DNA of 35,494 bases from a virus. Its lineage: Duplodnaviria > Heunggongvirae > Uroviricota > Caudoviricetes. The position numbers and the translations under genes are program-made. Shown one piece after another: positions 3,812 to 26,302 of the stretch; the first letter of the stretch is position 1; each line of letters starts with the position of its first letter. Under the pieces are notes generated by a model, which did not search any database, had not been told where the DNA came from, and saw nothing but the letters and a program-made list of their open reading frames with translations. The stretch lies in IMG/VR virus record IMGVR_UViG_2724679140_000015, one strand, 5' to 3'.

Positions 3812-4149
3812 AGCAGTTCCTGAGTACGGGGTTGTCCGTCTGAGCCTTTCCAGCTCACCCGGAGCGTAAGATGTTCGCCGTCGACGGCGGGTTTAACCGA
3901 CATAAGCTGGCAGCGGGGTTCCCAGCGCCTGATGGCATCGACGGATTCGCGAACCACATGCGGAATGGCCCGGTCGACAGGCCAGTCGATATAAAGGTGC
4001 AGATTGCTGCCGAACTCCGGGCGATGCGGGTCGCTGCCGCGGGGAGTCCGCAGGATGATCTGGATGGACTGCCGGATATCATCCAGCCCCCGGACGATTT
4101 CGCCGGGAGCCTGCAGAGCTGGTTGCCAGAATACTGAGGTCGTTTTCAT
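3802..4149 (-). CDS. baseplate protein, gpW/gp25-like
   Basis: 115-aa ORF between V-like and J-like genes. Confidence 0.5.
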   Translation of the reverse strand: MKTTSVFWQPALQAPGEIVRGLDDIRQSIQIILRTPRGSDPHRPEFGSNLHLYIDWPVDRAIPHVVRESVDAIRRWEPRCQLMSVKPAVDGEHLTLRVSWKGSDGQPRTQELLWR

Positions 4150-4204
4150 AGGAGCAGTATTGCCCCCGGAAGGGAACGCCGATATTAAAGGCGTTTAAGA
4201 AACT

Positions 4205-4717
4205 TCAGTGCGAGTGATGATTAGAGTTCTGGCCATCTGACAACATACTGCCTGTCGAGTGGGCATTGCCGTTAATTTCAAGGTTGCCATTTACAGTGGT
4301 GGTGTCAGCGGTCAGAACAATAGTTTTCCCTTTCAGGCTGATATCCACTGCAACCTCGATCACCACATGCTCAATACCGCCTTTGACTGTCAGCGTATGG
4401 GTCGCGCGGTTATAACTGAACTCCGCGCCATCAGCGTATTTCGTGCCCCGGACGTTTTTATCACTGAACGGTGGTTTATCGACGTCTGAGTACACCGCGC
4501 CCAGTATAACACCATCCTCGCCGTTAGCATCGAGCAACACCTCAACTTGTTCCCCCACGTCAGGGAGCCAGTAATCCTTATTATCCTGGGTATTGTGCTG
4601 CAGCACGTTAAGCCAGTTTGTGCGCAGGTTATCGCATTCAGGCAGACGCACGCGGGCCTGAACCCTGTCTGCATCAACGGCACTGACCGTACCGACCTGA
4701 CGGGTGACACCAGTCAT
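4205..4717 (-). CDS. baseplate spike/assembly protein V-like
   Basis: 170-aa ORF; synteny in baseplate cluster. Confidence 0.5.
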   Translation of the reverse strand: MTGVTRQVGTVSAVDADRVQARVRLPECDNLRTNWLNVLQHNTQDNKDYWLPDVGEQVEVLLDANGEDGVILGAVYSDVDKPPFSDKNVRGTKYADGAEFSYNRATHTLTVKGGIEHVVIEVAVDISLKGKTIVLTADTTTVNGNLEINGNAHSTGSMLSDGQNSNHHSH

Positions 4718-20885: not shown

Positions 20886-21193
20886 TCACTCCAGTATTTT
20901 TCCGGGCGGGCAATACCGGGGCTGCATTCCACGGTGTATTCCACAATATCCACCCCAAGGCGGCTCAGATCGGCAAACCAGTCACCGGACGGTCTCCTCT
21001 CCAGTTCCACCATTTTGCGATCTGCCAGGTAATCAAGCTCACGGCGCAGCTCCAGTTGCGTGGTGTCCGGGTAGATGGCGCGGGACACTTCCAGCAGCAA
21101 CGTCTCGCTGGCGGTGTAAGGGCGGGTTTTGTTCAGGGCAACCAGCAGACTCCAGCGCAGGGATTCGCGGCGTACCCGGGTAATATCGACCAT
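20882..21193 (-). CDS. hypothetical protein
   Basis: 103-aa ORF translationally coupled to neighbours. Confidence 0.35.
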   Translation of the reverse strand: MVDITRVRRESLRWSLLVALNKTRPYTASETLLLEVSRAIYPDTTQLELRRELDYLADRKMVELERRPSGDWFADLSRLGVDIVEYTVECSPGIARPEKYWSE

Positions 21194-21519
21194 TATTGAC
21201 CTCCGGTATTGCGGTACTGCTGTACCACTTCCAGTTTGTTGTAAAGCGCGTCCAGTTTGGCCTCGATAACTGTCTGGCCACGGATATAATCCTCGCGACG
21301 GACATAATTCAGCGGTAAATCCGCCTTAAATCGCATAAATTCTTTTTCCAGCTCGCCCCAGTTGGAGGCGGACTGCTGCAGTGACTGCTCAAGAGAGGCG
21401 AATCGTGCAGTCTGGCGTTCTTCCGCTTTACTGAACAGCCATTTGGCGAGCCCTCCCACAAACCCCATGAAGGTGAGCAGAAAACTCACCACCGTCCAGA
21501 ATTCAACCTGCAGTGTCAT
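21193..21519 (-). CDS. hypothetical membrane protein
   Basis: 108-aa ORF with N-terminal hydrophobic segment. Confidence 0.35.
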   Translation of the reverse strand: MTLQVEFWTVVSFLLTFMGFVGGLAKWLFSKAEERQTARFASLEQSLQQSASNWGELEKEFMRFKADLPLNYVRREDYIRGQTVIEAKLDALYNKLEVVQQYRNTGGQ

Positions 21520-22166
21520 TTCTGTAATCCTTCCCGTTCATTCAGCAGCGCGTTTATCTGGTTCCGCCAGCGACGACATTGCCCTGCGTTGTCGATGATA
21601 TTGGCGAGGACGTCACGCTGGGAGACACCCGAATTGCGTAACCGGGCGTCAGCGGTTTCAGGTTGCCCGGTCGCTGCGCCAGTGCCGGTGCCAGCGGCGG
21701 CAGTTGCGTCTGAATGACCGGTGTCGACGGATGCGTTGTCATATCCGAGTGCGGCGTTGTACTGGCGCACGAAACCGCGAGTAAACACGCACTCAATGGG
21801 ATGGCTCTTACCTTTTTCATCAATCCAGCGCTGTGTGACATCGTTAATTTGCCCCTGTAGTTGTTTGTTCCGGCTCTCCAGTTGAGCAATCTGCTCAAGG
21901 TAACTGGCTTCAGCCTGCTGCCCGGCGGCCACCTGCTCCTGATACCGTTTTGCCCATGCTCGCAACGCAGCGTTCTCAAGCATTGCCTGCTCCGTTTTGT
22001 ACGCGTCAAATGCTGACTGCAACTGACTGAGCGCGGTATCACCGTCACGCTTTGCAGAGTCATGACCACTTCTGTATCCCATGGCATACAGGCCGATCAG
22101 AAAGGCATTGATAAGAATGGCCAGAAGAATGCCGCGCCATGGCAGTTTTTTAACCAGATGCCACAC
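21516..22166 (-). CDS. candidate i-spanin (Rz-like)
   Basis: N-terminal transmembrane segment followed by coiled-coil-like region, immediately downstream of the endolysin; GTG start at 22166 preceded by GGAGG (ORF track extends to 22268). Confidence 0.4.
   Translation of the reverse strand: MWHLVKKLPWRGILLAILINAFLIGLYAMGYRSGHDSAKRDGDTALSQLQSAFDAYKTEQAMLENAALRAWAKRYQEQVAAGQQAEASYLEQIAQLESRNKQLQGQINDVTQRWIDEKGKSHPIECVFTRGFVRQYNAALGYDNASVDTGHSDATAAAGTGTGAATGQPETADARLRNSGVSQRDVLANIIDNAGQCRRWRNQINALLNEREGLQK
21554..21820 (-). CDS. candidate o-spanin (Rz1-like lipoprotein) embedded in the +1 frame of the i-spanin gene
   Basis: Internal Met followed by signal peptide ending in a lipobox-like LAVSC, then Pro-rich sequence; wholly inside 21516-22166. 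Confidence 0.4.
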   Translation of the reverse strand: MKKVRAIPLSACLLAVSCASTTPHSDMTTHPSTPVIQTQLPPLAPALAQRPGNLKPLTPGYAIRVSPSVTSSPISSTTQGNVVAGGTR

Positions 22167-22890
22167 AACTGCTGCCTCCCCATGTGAGATATCGCGGTGC
22201 CAGCTCACGCAGAATGCGTTGCGGATAATGACGGTTCTCCCGCCAGCTGGCCGCATTGCGTCCGGCATTCACCGTGGCGACATGACCAAACCAGCGGGTG
22301 CTGTCCAGACCTTTCTGTGATGCAAGCCGCCTGTCCCGTTGTACCCAGCCCAGACCACCGTTATAGCCCGACAGTGTCATGGCCATACGCTCGCAGTCGT
22401 TGGCGGCGCTGACGCGCTGCCACAGCCAGCGGTCATAGCTGACCAGCGCCCGGATAGCCCATGCAGGATTAAACGGCTCACGACTGCTCAGCATCGGTAT
22501 CAACTGGCTTATCCAGTCGGCAGTGGCAGGCATGAACTGCGCCAGTCCTTGAGCGCCAGCCGGTGAGACCGCATCAGGTCGCCAGCCGCTTTCCTGATGC
22601 AGTTGCGCGGCAAAGTCGGCCACCGGCGCAGACAGTCCCCATTCAAGCCGGGCATTACGGATCACATCATCGCGATACTGCAGCGCAGCCTGCGGAGGTT
22701 GTGCTGCGCATGCCTGGCTGAAAAAGCCGCCACACCAGAGCAATATTGCGACAAAGAATACCCATGCCATATGAACCAGAAAGGTCCCGGCGCGGACTGA
22801 CAGGCGTTCGGTTCTGATGAAGACCCGAAAGGCTTCGAAAGCCAGTTTCAGGGACATGCATACAATCCAGGTGATCTGCGGCCAGTTCAT
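22150..22890 (-). CDS. endolysin, lytic transglycosylase (SLT domain), possibly signal-anchored
   Basis: GLAQFMPATA motif typical of SLT domains; N-terminal hydrophobic stretch; alternative start at 22770. Confidence 0.65.
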   Translation of the reverse strand: MNWPQITWIVCMSLKLAFEAFRVFIRTERLSVRAGTFLVHMAWVFFVAILLWCGGFFSQACAAQPPQAALQYRDDVIRNARLEWGLSAPVADFAAQLHQESGWRPDAVSPAGAQGLAQFMPATADWISQLIPMLSSREPFNPAWAIRALVSYDRWLWQRVSAANDCERMAMTLSGYNGGLGWVQRDRRLASQKGLDSTRWFGHVATVNAGRNAASWRENRHYPQRILRELAPRYLTWGGSSCVASG

Positions 22891-22892
22891 GA

Positions 22893-23243
22893 TTAAAGCC
22901 CCATCGCAACAGCCAGGCAGACCGCTGCAACAATCAGTGCACGGCGGATTAACGCAGCAGAAAACACCAGGTGAAGGCCGGTCTGTACCGGGAAACGCCC
23001 TTCAGCCATCAGCCTGTCGTCATGTTTCAGGTACTGACCGGGACGGGCTTTGGGGAAGAGCGAACGGTCAAGCCAGTAACCCAGCACTGCTGCCAGCGTG
23101 ATGAGTGCCAGCTTGTAGATCACAACAGGCAGTTGCTGTGGTGAGACCAGAGCGATGGTGCCCAGCAACAGCACTGAGGTCAGCAGCCAGCCGCTGAGGC
23201 GAGGTTTTTTAACAGGGGGAATGAATGTTTTCAGGTTTTTCAT
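22893..23243 (-). CDS. putative holin (small membrane protein)
   Basis: Two to three predicted transmembrane segments; AAGGAG 6 nt upstream of ATG at 23243; immediately upstream of endolysin. Confidence 0.45.
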   Translation of the reverse strand: MKNLKTFIPPVKKPRLSGWLLTSVLLLGTIALVSPQQLPVVIYKLALITLAAVLGYWLDRSLFPKARPGQYLKHDDRLMAEGRFPVQTGLHLVFSAALIRRALIVAAVCLAVAMGL

Positions 23244-23373
23244 GTGTGTCTCCTTATCTGGTGGAGACAGCATCACAAATACAGGGCGCGAAGGATTTTA
23301 AAGCGCGTTAAGAGAGCCGGGGATACGGGATGTGCAGGATAAACGATGAATTATTCACAGAGGAGAATACGAT

Positions 23374-24117
23374 ATGACGCAGACACTGAATCCGGTCATC
23401 ACTGTCACCGTGTCCGGTCCTGTGGGCAGCGGTAAAAGTTACATATTGGCGCGGATAGAGGAAGTGGTGAAACAGGAATTCGGAAACAGCGTCATTGTCG
23501 ACGCCGCAGACGTGGACGGTGAGCGCCGTATGAGTGGGGGTGATCTGAGCACATGGCAGAAACCACGGGCAGGCACACTTATCCGACTGGAGGAATACAC
23601 AGAAAAAACTCCGATGTCATACAGCGAGGGATGCATTCTCCGGACGAATGCACTGCTGGATGTTATATGCCCCACAGGCCAGTACCCATGGACACTGCCC
23701 GATGCACTGCATGCCACTATTGCGGCACTGATGGCAGTTTACGATCAGGAGCTGCTCATGAAGGAGCTACGTAAACTCACTGGTCAGCCAACAGAATGTT
23801 TTTCGGCCCCGAAGTACGGGAAGCAGGAACACATCCCGGTGAACACAATCCCCGTTAACCAGCCTCCCCGGTTCTTCGACGAATACATTCTGACACCGGA
23901 AAATAAAGCTGAGCATGAAGTGATCAAAGAGGCGTTGTTCCGGGAAATCAGGAAGATTGCTGAAATGCAACTGGAGGGCGGGCTGGACAGAGTGATGGCG
24001 AGAGGAGAATGGGAATCGCTGTTTGAAAGAACTTCCCCGGAATTACTTCCCCTCGCACTGGCTATCGGGATTATGCAGACAGCGGATAAACCTCACTTAC
24101 GTTCATTAAACACGTAA
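23374..24117 (+). CDS. small P-loop NTPase/kinase-like protein, function unknown
   Basis: Walker A-like GPVGSGKSY near N-terminus; GAGGAG RBS 8 nt upstream of ATG. Confidence 0.5.
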   Translation: MTQTLNPVITVTVSGPVGSGKSYILARIEEVVKQEFGNSVIVDAADVDGERRMSGGDLSTWQKPRAGTLIRLEEYTEKTPMSYSEGCILRTNALLDVICPTGQYPWTLPDALHATIAALMAVYDQELLMKELRKLTGQPTECFSAPKYGKQEHIPVNTIPVNQPPRFFDEYILTPENKAEHEVIKEALFREIRKIAEMQLEGGLDRVMARGEWESLFERTSPELLPLALAIGIMQTADKPHLRSLNT

Positions 24118-24497
24118 CTCATAATCCGGGATACGCGTTCAGCGATGACTGCATTTTCACCGGTTTTTACTGCATCCAGAAGTGACTCTTTAAATGGTGC
24201 GGGCCGGGGCTGCAGAAGGGTCGGCGTGGCATTGAGCAGACGGAGCGTTTTTTCCGTGAGGACGACATCAGCCGCTCCCACAGCCAGCAACTGAGAGTAA
24301 CGAATATAGCTGTTATCCCGAAGCCATATCAGCGTATCAATAAAATACCGGCACTTTTTCTGGTCGTGATCAACCTGGTCCGGGATATCGAAAAAACCAG
24401 AATAAATCAAAACCTGAGGTGCCGGATGCGTGTTCAGTAATCGGCAGAATATTTTGCCGGTGAGTGCATAAAAATCATCATTTAAGGAGTGCATCAT
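24093..24497 (-). CDS. hypothetical protein, paralog 1 of a duplicated ~130-aa family
   Basis: Shares several conserved blocks with 24963-25343 (e.g. IFxRL, DTxxWLxxxxY, LNATP). Confidence 0.45.
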   Translation of the reverse strand: MMHSLNDDFYALTGKIFCRLLNTHPAPQVLIYSGFFDIPDQVDHDQKKCRYFIDTLIWLRDNSYIRYSQLLAVGAADVVLTEKTLRLLNATPTLLQPRPAPFKESLLDAVKTGENAVIAERVSRIMSYVFNERK

Positions 24498-24711: not shown

Positions 24712-24902
24712 TCCCTAAACCACATTAACAGAAATCACTTCATCCCTGCCGCATCATGAAAGAACGACCAGCCCGGTGCTTCGGACCCACCGGGCTGGCC
24801 ATCGTCCCACAGAAGTGGCTGTGAGCCGACCGAGGTTCAGTCAGTCTCGCGAGACCAGACTAGCCTGCCATATTTTTAATAATTGTAAAATGTTTACAGA
24901 TT

Positions 24903-24956
24903 ATGAAAACGCAGACATTACCCATCGTTCCATGGATTGGTGGCAAACGCTGCCTT
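24903..24956 (+). pseudogene. truncated remnant of a Dam-like methyltransferase N-terminus
   Basis: MKTQTLPIVPWIGGKRCL matches the N-terminus of the intact gene at 25538 (MKEQSLPIVPWIGGKRRL); frame diverges and stops at 25004; upstream ~85 bp also duplicated. Confidence 0.45.
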
Positions 24957-24962
24957 GCGATA

Positions 24963-25343
24963 TTACATAAGACCACGAGACATATATTGCAGACCTATTC
25001 CTAGAGTCTGGCTAACCAGTGATCGCAACGCTTCTTTCCCTTCAATTTTTATAGAGTCAGATATTCTGGCCCCCAACGGTTTTTCCAGACTTCCAGGCGT
25101 AGCGTTTAATACCTCAAGACCTTTAGCCGTTAGCACTGCGTTGTGGATCCCCCCAGAACTACGCGCCCCGATTAAATAGCCACTGTTTTTAAGCCAGTCT
25201 ACGGTATCAAGAAAAAAAGTAAGTTCATTCTGTCTAACGATATCAACTGCCTTTATATCAATTTTGACGGGGAAAGATTCGTAGAGTCTCCCAAATATCT
25301 CACCAACTATTTCATTAAACCGCTCAATATTTTTTGGGGCCAT
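24963..25343 (-). CDS. hypothetical protein, paralog 2 of the duplicated ~130-aa family
   Basis: Likely start at internal ATG (MAPKNIERF...) at 25343; ORF-track start at 25427 probably over-extended. Confidence 0.45.
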   Translation of the reverse strand: MAPKNIERFNEIVGEIFGRLYESFPVKIDIKAVDIVRQNELTFFLDTVDWLKNSGYLIGARSSGGIHNAVLTAKGLEVLNATPGSLEKPLGARISDSIKIEGKEALRSLVSQTLGIGLQYMSRGLM

Positions 25344-25537
25344 GGTATTAGTAACTCCCTTTAATTGTCGCCCATGAAATATGCAAATAACATGAAAAGA
25401 GCGACTCACCTTGTGCAGCGAACACAAGGCGAGTCATCAACTTACAGGTATGAGCTGTGAGTCAACCGAGGCTCTTCCGTTCTCGAGAACAAGGGAAGCC
25501 TATCGCATTTTCATCTAATGAAAAAGGCTTACAGATA

Positions 25538-26302
25538 ATGAAAGAACAATCTTTACCCATCGTCCCCTGGATTGGGGGAAAACGTCGTCTGGCCAAACAC
25601 ATTCTGCCCCAGTTCCCACTCCATACCTGCTATGTGGAGCCATTCTGCGGCGCAGCAGCACTTTATTTTCTCAAGACTCCCAGCAAGATCGAAGTCATTA
25701 ACGATATCAACGGTGAACTGGTAAATCTGTATCGGGTAGTAAAGCATCATCTGGAAGAATTTGTCCGCCAATTCAAATGGGCGCTGGTTAGCCGGCAGAT
25801 CTACAAATGGCAGCAGATCACCCCGGAAGAAACACTGACGGATATCCAGCGTGCGGCACGGTTCTACTACCTCCAGAAGCAGGCGTTTGGGGGCAAGGTG
25901 GCAGAGCACAGCTTCGGCACCTCCACCACCTCCCCGCCACGCTTCAACCTGCTCCGGATTGAAGAAGAACTGTCAGCGGCACACCTGCGGCTTTCCAGAA
26001 CGGTGATAGAACACATGGACTGGCACCAGTGCATTAAGCGTTATGACCGTCCGCACACGCTGTTCTACTGTGATCCGCCCTATCTGGGGACGGAAGGCTA
26101 TGGTGTGGATTTTCCTGAAGAGAACTACACACTACTCGCAGAACTGGCACGGTGCATCAGAGGAAAGATGATTATCTCGGTGAATGACATTCCGCAGATG
26201 CGTCGGGTGTTCACTGAACTGAACATACAGACGGTGAATATCAACTACAGTCTGGCGGGGAAACCCACGCCGCGCCGTGAACTGGTAATCTGCAACTTCT
26301 GA
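25538..26302 (+). CDS. orphan Dam-like N6-adenine DNA methyltransferase
   Basis: N-terminal PWIGGKR and FCGAAA (AdoMet-binding-like) and catalytic DPPY motif; start at ATG 25538 preferred over GTG 25457. Confidence 0.7.
   Translation: MKEQSLPIVPWIGGKRRLAKHILPQFPLHTCYVEPFCGAAALYFLKTPSKIEVINDINGELVNLYRVVKHHLEEFVRQFKWALVSRQIYKWQQITPEETLTDIQRAARFYYLQKQAFGGKVAEHSFGTSTTSPPRFNLLRIEEELSAAHLRLSRTVIEHMDWHQCIKRYDRPHTLFYCDPPYLGTEGYGVDFPEENYTLLAELARCIRGKMIISVNDIPQMRRVFTELNIQTVNINYSLAGKPTPRRELVICNF

Follow-up and report, generated by a model that had tools for sequence, protein, structure and literature searches.

The lysis genes of phage Mu lie just upstream of gp26/gp27-like genes and the terminase genes, a layout of transposable phages that is shared by the locus described here. 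This locus is part of a window of 35,494 nucleotides of viral DNA (IMG/VR virus record IMGVR_UViG_2724679140_000015, Caudoviricetes; positions are those of this whole stretch) and occupies 23243-21193 on the minus strand. Judged from its gene content, it is the late, leftward lysis operon of a BcepMu-like, Mu-type transposable prophage of Escherichia coli. The N-terminus of its endolysin is read here as a conserved two-helix membrane module that can also be encoded as a gene of its own, with a conserved cleavage-type site behind it.

In Mu itself the endolysin gp22 is a muramidase with a single Gly/Ala-rich signal-arrest-release (SAR) helix, the spanins are gp23 and gp23.1, gp25 is the releasin, and there is no holin. 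Mu and the window have in common an endolysin exported via its own N-terminal hydrophobic segment and a small N-anchored membrane protein past the spanins. However, the window possesses a Holin_2-3 gene, and gp25 has no detectable sequence relation to the 108-residue membrane protein of the window. With BcepMu the synteny is gene for gene (holin gp21, the 'soluble lytic murein transglycosylase' gp22, Rz gp23, Rz1 gp24, the inner-membrane protein gp25, gp26 and TerS gp27) and runs through the small and large terminase genes, gp26 being 56% identical. An embedded Rz1 (gp24) and an A-x-A motif before the mature enzyme are found in BcepMu as in the window. The BcepMu endolysin gp22 (203 residues) nevertheless has a short signal-peptide-like N-terminus (MRVLIAFVVALLGAAAPVAA↓Q, the arrow marking the cut) and no two-helix module, and the window protein is 40-odd residues longer.

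Two Pseudomonas phages show the module in different states. ORF24-30 of phage B3 are syntenic with the window, with the same holin and Rz families and with a fused module, A-x-A motif and SLT domain; B3 ORF29 is 58% identical to the window gene that follows the gene for the 108-residue protein. B3 differs in its Pseudomonas host, in an extra 70-residue gene between endolysin and Rz and in the few basic residues of its module loop. The D3112-like phage Fc02 (gp21-gp26) likewise has the same holin, SLT and Rz families and a module of the family phrog_5479 right after the holin gene. In Fc02, however, the module is a separate gene of 52 residues, the endolysin has its own signal, read as a SAR domain in the literature (PMC9239132), and the protein in the releasin slot is a genuine DUF2730 member with a relationship to Mu gp25 (E 1.6e-6), in contrast to the phrog_462 protein of the window. 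The pairing of a D3112-like 'type II' transglycosylase SAR endolysin with a DUF2730 protein was described by Chamblee et al. 2022 (PMC9239132).

The lactococcal P335 endolysin carries a transmembrane helix and a signal peptidase I site, and removal of the helix is needed for activity (PMC9371310), while Lys44 of phage fOg44 is a signal-peptide endolysin (PMC2628397). Both resemble the window protein in needing the host secretion machinery and in a predicted cut between membrane segment and enzyme. They differ from it in being of Gram-positive systems, with a single helix, unrelated catalytic domains and no two-helix module that exists as an independent gene. A literature search found no description of the endolysin N-terminus as such a module, and no paper on this module, on lysis by Escherichia phage PhiKM or on the 52-residue gene of D3112-type phages.

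The N-terminal module of the endolysin

The endolysin gene comprises the following features.

22150..22890, minus strand: endolysin precursor, 246 residues (membrane module, A-x-A linker and SLT lytic transglycosylase domain)
22720..22890, minus strand: two-helix membrane module, residues 1-57 (M-N-W-P-Q-I ... L-L-W-C-G-G-F-F), a diverged phrog_5479 member
22702..22719, minus strand: A-x-A motif S-Q-A-C-A-A, residues 58-63, with a predicted signal peptidase I cut between A62 and A63, before Q-P-P
22312..22602, minus strand: SLT catalytic domain, residues 97-193 (coordinates of the PF01464 match)
22591-22593, minus strand: codon of the catalytic Glu100 (GAA on the coding strand, ttc on the plus strand)

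An earlier note, made from the sequence alone, had reported a hydrophobic N-terminus on this endolysin, and hydrophobic segments are indeed found at about residues 3-25 and 36-57. An AlphaFold2 model built from a 30-sequence alignment places helices at 3-25 and 30-53 (pLDDT 67-79), which is weak support given a mean pLDDT of 57.7 for the whole model, too poor for fold searches. In most homologues the region ahead of the enzyme has four parts: a first helix (W-P-Q-I-T-W and some 15 hydrophobic residues), a short loop of basic character (such as K-H-G-E-P-R-T-G-K-H), a second helix with a strikingly conserved end (W-L-L-W-C-G-G-F-F), and S-Q-A-x-A↓A-(Q or E)-P-P. In the window protein the basic residues R22, R26, R29 and R33 precede helix 2, and helix 1 holds K15, E19 and R22.

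A profile of the 62-residue region ahead of the enzyme gave 1742 matches at E<=1e-3 among 1.84 billion representative proteins, 130 of them at E<=1e-10. Among the matches listed, nearly all are free-standing proteins of 52-60 residues that cover profile positions 1-54 and end in ...GGFF. The other listed matches are tandem duplications of 108-121 residues with four helices, which hint that the module works as a dimer, and a few more distant SLT fusions. The free-standing proteins are members of phrog_5479, a family with a 53-position profile and the label 'unknown function' (matches at E 1e-13 to 1e-28), and have no Pfam or NCBIfam family and no name in their source annotations. Two typical endolysin relatives match the same family with their N-terminal regions at 4.4e-15 and 3e-15. 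Residues 1-58 of the window protein match the full profile, positions 1-53, at a weak E of 6.8e-4, as a diverged variant that retains the M-x-x-P-Q-I start and the G-G-F-F end. M1, P4, Q5, L16, G54, G55 and F56 are invariant in fused and free modules alike. One phrog_5479 protein, of 277 residues, extends into an additional transmembrane helix and a long coiled coil.

The clearest free form within a lysis cassette is Fc02 gp22, a 52-residue module (MGAPQIIWIVLAAVVLVTSYACDGLTNVISFKQRVFDVIAMTALVWWGGFFG; phrog_5479, 2.4e-31) located between holin gp21 and endolysin gp23. The gp23 start codon overlaps the gp22 stop, and gp23 has an N-terminal signal of its own, MKRLLTLGLLGLLSACQPAFA↓TD. This 52-residue gene abuts the endolysin gene in 48 records of D3112-like Pseudomonas phages at 92-100% identity, and in a few records its deposited label is 'holin' or 'phage lysis protein'. 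The fused form is seen in B3 ORF25 (MGIPQTILIV...LLLAGGFFSSAKA↓DEIP...; phrog_5479, 8.2e-9), the catalytic part of which is 89% identical to Fc02 gp23. By these sequence comparisons the window endolysin is the fused state of a gene pair that is split in close relatives, and the occurrence of fused (B3, window) and split (D3112-like) states is the usual mark of proteins acting in one process. The deposited start of B3 ORF25 (NC_006548, 2438-3232) is a non-ATG codon in overlap with the holin gene. Translation probably begins at the ATG 21 codons downstream, at locus position 2501 and 2 nt past the holin stop, which gives the conserved N-terminus M-G-I-P-Q.

The middle of the window module (22745-22860, codons about 11-48) is replaced or strongly diverged relative to the type found in Klebsiella phage KP12, between nearly identical flanks, ATGAACTGGCCGCAGATCACC and CTGCTCTGGTGTGGCGGCTT. 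The window-type variant, with its charged helix 1 and Met41, is the commonest in E. coli (a cluster of 1104 sequences). An origin of residues 8-47 by frameshift of the KP12-type sequence was considered and rejected, as stops interrupt the other two frames, neither of which shows similarity, and as the DNA itself diverges between the conserved flanks.

The catalytic domain supports the earlier assignment of the enzyme to the lytic transglycosylases. It matches PF01464 SLT over residues 97-193 (E 1.2e-14, 54.4 bits against a cut-off of 21.3), and the protein matches phrog_669 'endolysin' at 4.1e-69. Identity is 61% to BcepMu gp22 (SLT domain), 60% to Fc02 gp23 and 51% to B3 ORF25 over residues 1-242. 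A profile of 30 homologues matches E. coli Slt70 (1sly/1qsa, E 1.1e-8), MltF and other solved transglycosylases, with E100-S101 aligned to the catalytic E478-S479 of Slt70 (the E-S motif). E100, G115, Q118 and Y176-N177-G178-G179 are invariant in the 30 homologues, within the motifs G-L-A-Q and Y-N-G-G. These matches identify the endolysin as a family-1 lytic transglycosylase in which the catalytic Glu is intact.

Proposed export and cleavage

Between the module and the enzyme lies the A-x-A motif. Among the endolysin homologues A63 is invariant, and A60 and A62 hardly vary. Small residues occupy -3 and -1 around a variable -2 position in every case compared: PVAA↓Q in BcepMu, SAHA↓Q in KS10, PAFA↓T in Fc02, SAKA↓D in B3, GSNA↓A in Brenneria and QACA↓A in the window. 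This -3/-1 rule is kept over at least five unrelated N-terminal types. The export device is freely exchanged within this endolysin family. BcepMu and Brenneria have a plain signal-peptide-like segment, KS10 an amphipathic helix and one transmembrane helix, and one metagenomic variant a clear lipobox (LLSGC), as Fc02 possibly does too. In a group of Salmonella prophages the N-terminus likewise consists of two helices, but these are unrelated to the module (MTMIFYIISCVLVAAAIIASLYGAIRKACAEGAFFLVLIFLFFASMFG...SHA↓AEPP) and do not match phrog_5479. The conservation of A-x-A across unrelated N-termini is taken here as the best evidence at hand that the enzyme is cut free, and we infer that signal peptidase I cuts the window endolysin after A62.

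The segment ahead of the motif does not resemble a SAR domain in composition. Gly, Ala, Ser and Thr make up a fraction of 0.21 of helix 2, against 0.53-0.63 in Mu gp22 and in the sequences that we take to be those of P1 Lyz and phage 21 R, and helix 2 is instead rich in Trp, Phe and Leu. In a crude insertion-energy sum it is as hydrophobic as the anchor of the i-spanin encoded downstream (-0.23 versus -0.35). The single, weakly hydrophobic, Gly/Ala/Ser/Thr-rich helix of SAR domains is not found in the window endolysin, although the energy sums of its typical relatives overlap the SAR range. The earlier suggestion of either a SAR anchor or a cleavable signal stands as regards membrane targeting; in form, the N-terminus differs both from a plain signal peptide and from a typical SAR domain, being a two-helix module with an A-x-A site. 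With a membrane-targeting N-terminus of its own, the endolysin should not need holin holes to reach the periplasm.

Proposed mechanism and alternatives

The account of lysis proposed here, to which slightly better than even confidence is attached, combines holin-independent export via a hairpin, a cut at A-x-A, lysis timed by the holin and a role of the module in lysis beyond export. All proteins of the cassette would be made from late transcripts that start in the 130-bp region ahead of the holin gene. The endolysin module would insert as a hairpin with both ends periplasmic and the basic loop cytoplasmic, and helix 2, as an internal export signal, would carry the SLT domain to the periplasm via the host Sec/YidC machinery. 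Signal peptidase I would then cut after A62, yielding a membrane peptide of 62 residues and, in equal quantity, a soluble enzyme of some 184 residues. Collapse of the membrane potential unleashes already exported secreted endolysins such as Lys44, and in the same way the holin would set the time of lysis by collapsing the potential. The spanins would act last, disrupting the outer membrane. Beyond export, the module is probably involved in lysis in its own right, because a separate module gene persists where the endolysin has its own signal and because family-specific invariant residues are kept when the module is fused.

Several observations weigh against this account. The holin role of PF13272 proteins is only putative. 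The account gives no reason why an enzyme already cut free and soluble before holin triggering would be harmless. With K15, E19 and R22, helix 1 of the window protein may not span the membrane. The basic loop R22/R26/R29/R33 ahead of helix 2 and the c-region SQACA↓A, with Ala at -3 and -1, are as in a cleavable Sec signal, but the hydrophobic stretch before A-x-A is 20-23 residues long and has an extra helix ahead of it; this length exceeds the typical core of a cleaved signal and can block cleavage. Crude insertion-energy sums for helix 2 of typical relatives (+0.8 to +3.5) lie within the range of known SAR domains, and the closest studied relatives, the D3112-type transglycosylases, were classed as SAR endolysins by Chamblee et al. 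(PMC9239132). Finally, for a sample of 15 free-standing module genes on viral metagenome contigs the neighbours are replication and recombination genes (Sak4-like, SSB, helicase and replication-initiator genes) and not lysis genes, so that the link to lysis rests on the Mu-like phages and not on the whole of phrog_5479. In several viral contigs a single-module gene stands between a Sak4-like ATPase gene and an SSB-like gene. A tblastn search of phages with a metagenomic free-standing member returned just four partial Xanthomonas matches, in a non-lysis region.

The hairpin may instead be left uncleaved, with the endolysin tethered and inactive in the inner membrane until a SAR-like release, in which a depolarising, pinholin-like holin or a releasin-like protein in the gp25 slot would allow the weakly hydrophobic helices to exit the bilayer. 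Such an arrangement would agree with the long hydrophobic stretch and with the D3112-type homologues, which have a 60% identical catalytic domain and pair a SAR endolysin with a releasin-family protein (PMC9239132). It would also agree with the energy sums of helices 1 and 2 of typical members (+0.8 to +5.7, against +0.5 to +7.5 for known SAR domains) and with the small N-anchored membrane protein that fills the releasin slot. Release would nevertheless require two helices to exit the membrane together, the composition is un-SAR-like and helix 2 of the window is as hydrophobic as a spanin anchor, and the gp25-slot protein is not recognised as DUF2730. Tethering also leaves the strict conservation of A-x-A across unrelated N-termini unexplained, and an uncleaved hairpin is considered unlikely. 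Alternatively, the module may be a borrowed anchor and export signal with no lysis function of its own, the separate D3112-like gene being an unrelated passenger. The free exchange of export devices in this family (signal peptide, lipobox, unrelated hairpin, or the KS10 helices), the lack of a module in BcepMu itself and the replication-module setting of the metagenomic members are all compatible with this possibility. A generic anchor, however, would not need P4, Q5, L16, G54, G55 and F56, all of which the fused module keeps. In the 48 Pseudomonas records the holin and endolysin genes directly flank the free gene, and the stop of the free gene overlaps the start of the endolysin gene, despite the endolysin's own signal. 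Fused and split states with nearly identical catalytic domains (B3 versus Fc02, 89%) are moreover the usual signature of functional linkage, and a merely borrowed anchor appears rather improbable.

Under the proposed account of export, cleavage and a further role in lysis, a more specific suggestion can be put forward tentatively, and with more doubt than confidence: that the phrog_5479 protein is an unrecognised lysis factor of Mu-like phages (an antiholin, a holin partner or an endolysin 'keeper'), here delivered as a fused precursor that signal peptidase would split, at a fixed 1:1 dose. If true, this would represent a new way of controlling an endolysin via a fused regulator, and would be the first lead to a function for a family of very small phage membrane proteins, which comprises more than 1700 clusters and in many cases is found away from lysis cassettes. 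The phrog_5479 family (about 55 residues, no Pfam entry) becomes testable as a lysis component in the E. coli prophage and in D3112 and B3 in Pseudomonas aeruginosa. The module also bears on the question of Mu lysis, namely how exported endolysins are restrained and released in transposable phages.

Start codon of the endolysin

Besides ATG 22890, the endolysin gene has an internal in-frame ATG further downstream.

22768..22770, minus strand: internal ATG (Met41), probably not a functional start (no Shine-Dalgarno sequence, lineage-restricted)

The earlier note had allowed two alternative starts, at 22890 or 22770; the evidence favours ATG 22890. This codon lies 2 nt past the holin stop (TAA-TC-ATG), a junction also found in KP12, in a second E. 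coli lineage, in B3 and in Fc02. The N-terminus M-x-W-P-Q-I that it specifies is kept in homologues from Escherichia, Salmonella, Pantoea, Serratia, Pectobacterium, Dickeya, Morganella and Arsenophonus, with W3 and Q5 invariant and P4 nearly so among the endolysin homologues. In a comparison with an 86%-identical E. coli relative, the ratio of nonsynonymous to synonymous change (pN/pS) was 0.20 in codons 1-40, where counts are small (8.5 synonymous and 5.5 nonsynonymous changes), 0.21 in codons 41-62 and 0.19 in the catalytic part. The value for codons 1-40 is as expected of a translated segment.

It is conceivable that the module has decayed in this E. coli lineage and that the enzyme is made from ATG 22770, instead of or alongside the long form, as a signal-peptide protein like that of BcepMu. 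Met41 does occur in the window lineage, and the module, which matches phrog_5479 at just 6.8e-4, is diverged and less hydrophobic over residues 8-40. In the commonest E. coli variant, moreover, the short form would look like a canonical signal peptide, with M-A-R at its start, a hydrophobic core of 14 residues and SQARA↓A, and BcepMu gp22 is such a short form. The short form of the window, however, would begin M-A-W, without a basic residue, and no Shine-Dalgarno sequence precedes ATG 22770. Among the homologues compared, Met41 is confined to E. coli of the window-type lineage. Codons 1-40 are under purifying selection equal to that of the catalytic domain (within the small counts given), M-N-W-P-Q-I-T-W is intact, and ATG 22890 keeps its 2-nt junction with the holin stop. 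Decay of the module is accordingly regarded as very unlikely. Internal initiation at ATG 22770 may yield a minor extra product, a possibility that nothing positive supports. For annotators the long ORF start is correct, and in antibacterial expression of the enzyme residues 1-62 should come off.

Putative holin, spanins and the gp25-slot protein

The earlier note had also described a complete lysis cassette with spanins, its holin-like and endolysin genes at 22150-23243. Both of these ORFs lie on the minus strand with exactly these limits and match Pfam and PHROG families, and a putative holin, an SLT-type endolysin and an i- and o-spanin could all be identified. The remaining genes of the operon are as follows.

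22893..23243, minus strand: putative holin, 116 residues (PF13272 Holin_2-3 and phrog_1528), first gene of the leftward late operon
21516..22166, minus strand: i-spanin (Rz-like), 216 residues (phrog_1403 Rz-like, 9.2e-90), GTG start
21554..21820, minus strand: o-spanin (Rz1-like), 88 residues, embedded out of frame in the i-spanin gene, ATG 21820, proline-rich
21193..21519, minus strand: 108-residue membrane protein (phrog_462, 5e-36), in the slot where Mu has the releasin gp25

The putative holin matches PF13272 Holin_2-3 at E 1.1e-41 (141.8 bits, cut-off 27) and phrog_1528 'holin' at 1.3e-54. It is small, has two or three hydrophobic segments (about residues 17-35, 39-58 and 89-116) and adjoins the endolysin gene, and its ATG is preceded at 8 nt by a strong ribosome binding site, AGGAG. 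Identity is 52% to BcepMu gp21 and 41% to Fc02 gp21, which likewise falls into phrog_1528. The Pfam title of PF13272 is itself 'putative 2/3 transmembrane domain holin', and a literature search found no experimental report on the function of PF13272.

The i-spanin has a GGAGG ribosome binding site and a transmembrane helix at residues 8-32. Its gene overlaps the end of the endolysin gene by 17 nt, RefSeq assigns it the same start, and the protein is 28% identical to BcepMu gp23 and 34% to B3 ORF27. The o-spanin carries a lipoprotein signal, MKKVRAIPLSACLLAVS-C18, within the N-terminus MKKVRAIPLSACLLAVSC-ASTTP..., and on direct reading its lipobox fits the PROSITE pattern PS51257; it is 36% identical to BcepMu gp24 Rz1 (E 7e-12). 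The pair has the features of a two-component embedded spanin, an architecture described previously (PMC6139136). In the RefSeq/GenBank relatives inspected (UPEC129, KP12) the o-spanin is unannotated, and the enclosing i-spanin is labelled 'lipoprotein'.

The 108-residue protein, encoded by the second gene past the endolysin, has a transmembrane helix at residues 5-25 followed by a helical cytoplasmic part, and is 50% identical to BcepMu gp25 and 41% to B3 ORF28 (5e-30). Releasins are proteins of about 100 residues of transposable phages, with an N-out/C-in helix, encoded within five genes downstream of the endolysin (PMC9239132), and in size, N-terminal helix and position the window protein agrees with this description. 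From position and architecture it may belong to the lysis system. Its identification as a DUF2730 releasin was rejected, because no PF10805 match at E<=1 was found in 20 family members and no BLASTP match to Mu gp25. Alignment with Mu gp25 by hhalign gave a probability of 0.8% for the single sequence and 14% for the family profile. Two relatives are named 'DUF2730' in UniRef, and a very distant link to that family may exist. The slot between the spanins and the gp26-like gene is occupied by phrog_462 in the window, BcepMu (gp25) and B3 (ORF28), and by DUF2730/Mu gp25-like proteins (phrog_736) in Fc02 and Mu. By sequence the two families are apparently unrelated, while both comprise proteins of about 100-130 residues with an N-terminal transmembrane helix (loci L066, 3862-4182, and L065, from B3, 4043-4432). 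The PHROG label 'lipoprotein' for phrog_462 is unfit for the window protein, which has no Cys.

Prophage context

The genes of 23243-21193 are tightly packed in one operon in the order putative holin, endolysin, i-spanin with embedded o-spanin and small membrane protein, followed on the 3' side by a gp26-like gene and a Mu gp27-type small terminase gene. An rve-type transposase, a MuB-like ATPase, a repressor and a Dam methylase encoded elsewhere in the window identify the element as a transposable, Mu-type prophage. As judged from the strength of their family matches, the ORFs of the cassette are not due to chance. The cassette is of a known kind and very common, being present in 637 of 5426 complete E. 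coli genomes (about 1 in 8), and the lysis region is 97% identical to that of Escherichia phage PhiKM and 88-89% to that of Klebsiella phage KP12.

A promoter scan of the 130-bp region upstream of the holin gene (23244-23373) found no sigma-70-like promoter, which fits an activator-dependent late promoter. Across this region lies a divergent gene (23374-24117) for a 247-residue P-loop protein of phrog_3787 (unknown function). In E. coli UPEC129 a shorter, different gene labelled 'ABC transporter ATPase' is found at this position, and thus the cargo beside the lysis operon varies among otherwise 97%-identical prophages.

Further upstream, the start region of the Dam methylase gene (25457-26302) has a 97-nt copy, 72% identical, located 635 nt upstream (24862-24958 versus 25497-25593), which encodes merely a 33-residue remnant. 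One ORF precedes each Dam copy (24093-24497 and 24963-25427, minus strand); these two are paralogues (27% identity, E 4e-12) and have no family match. The GC content around the Dam copies is 44-48%, compared with 56-58% in the lysis genes, and this stretch looks like a partly duplicated accessory (moron) region.

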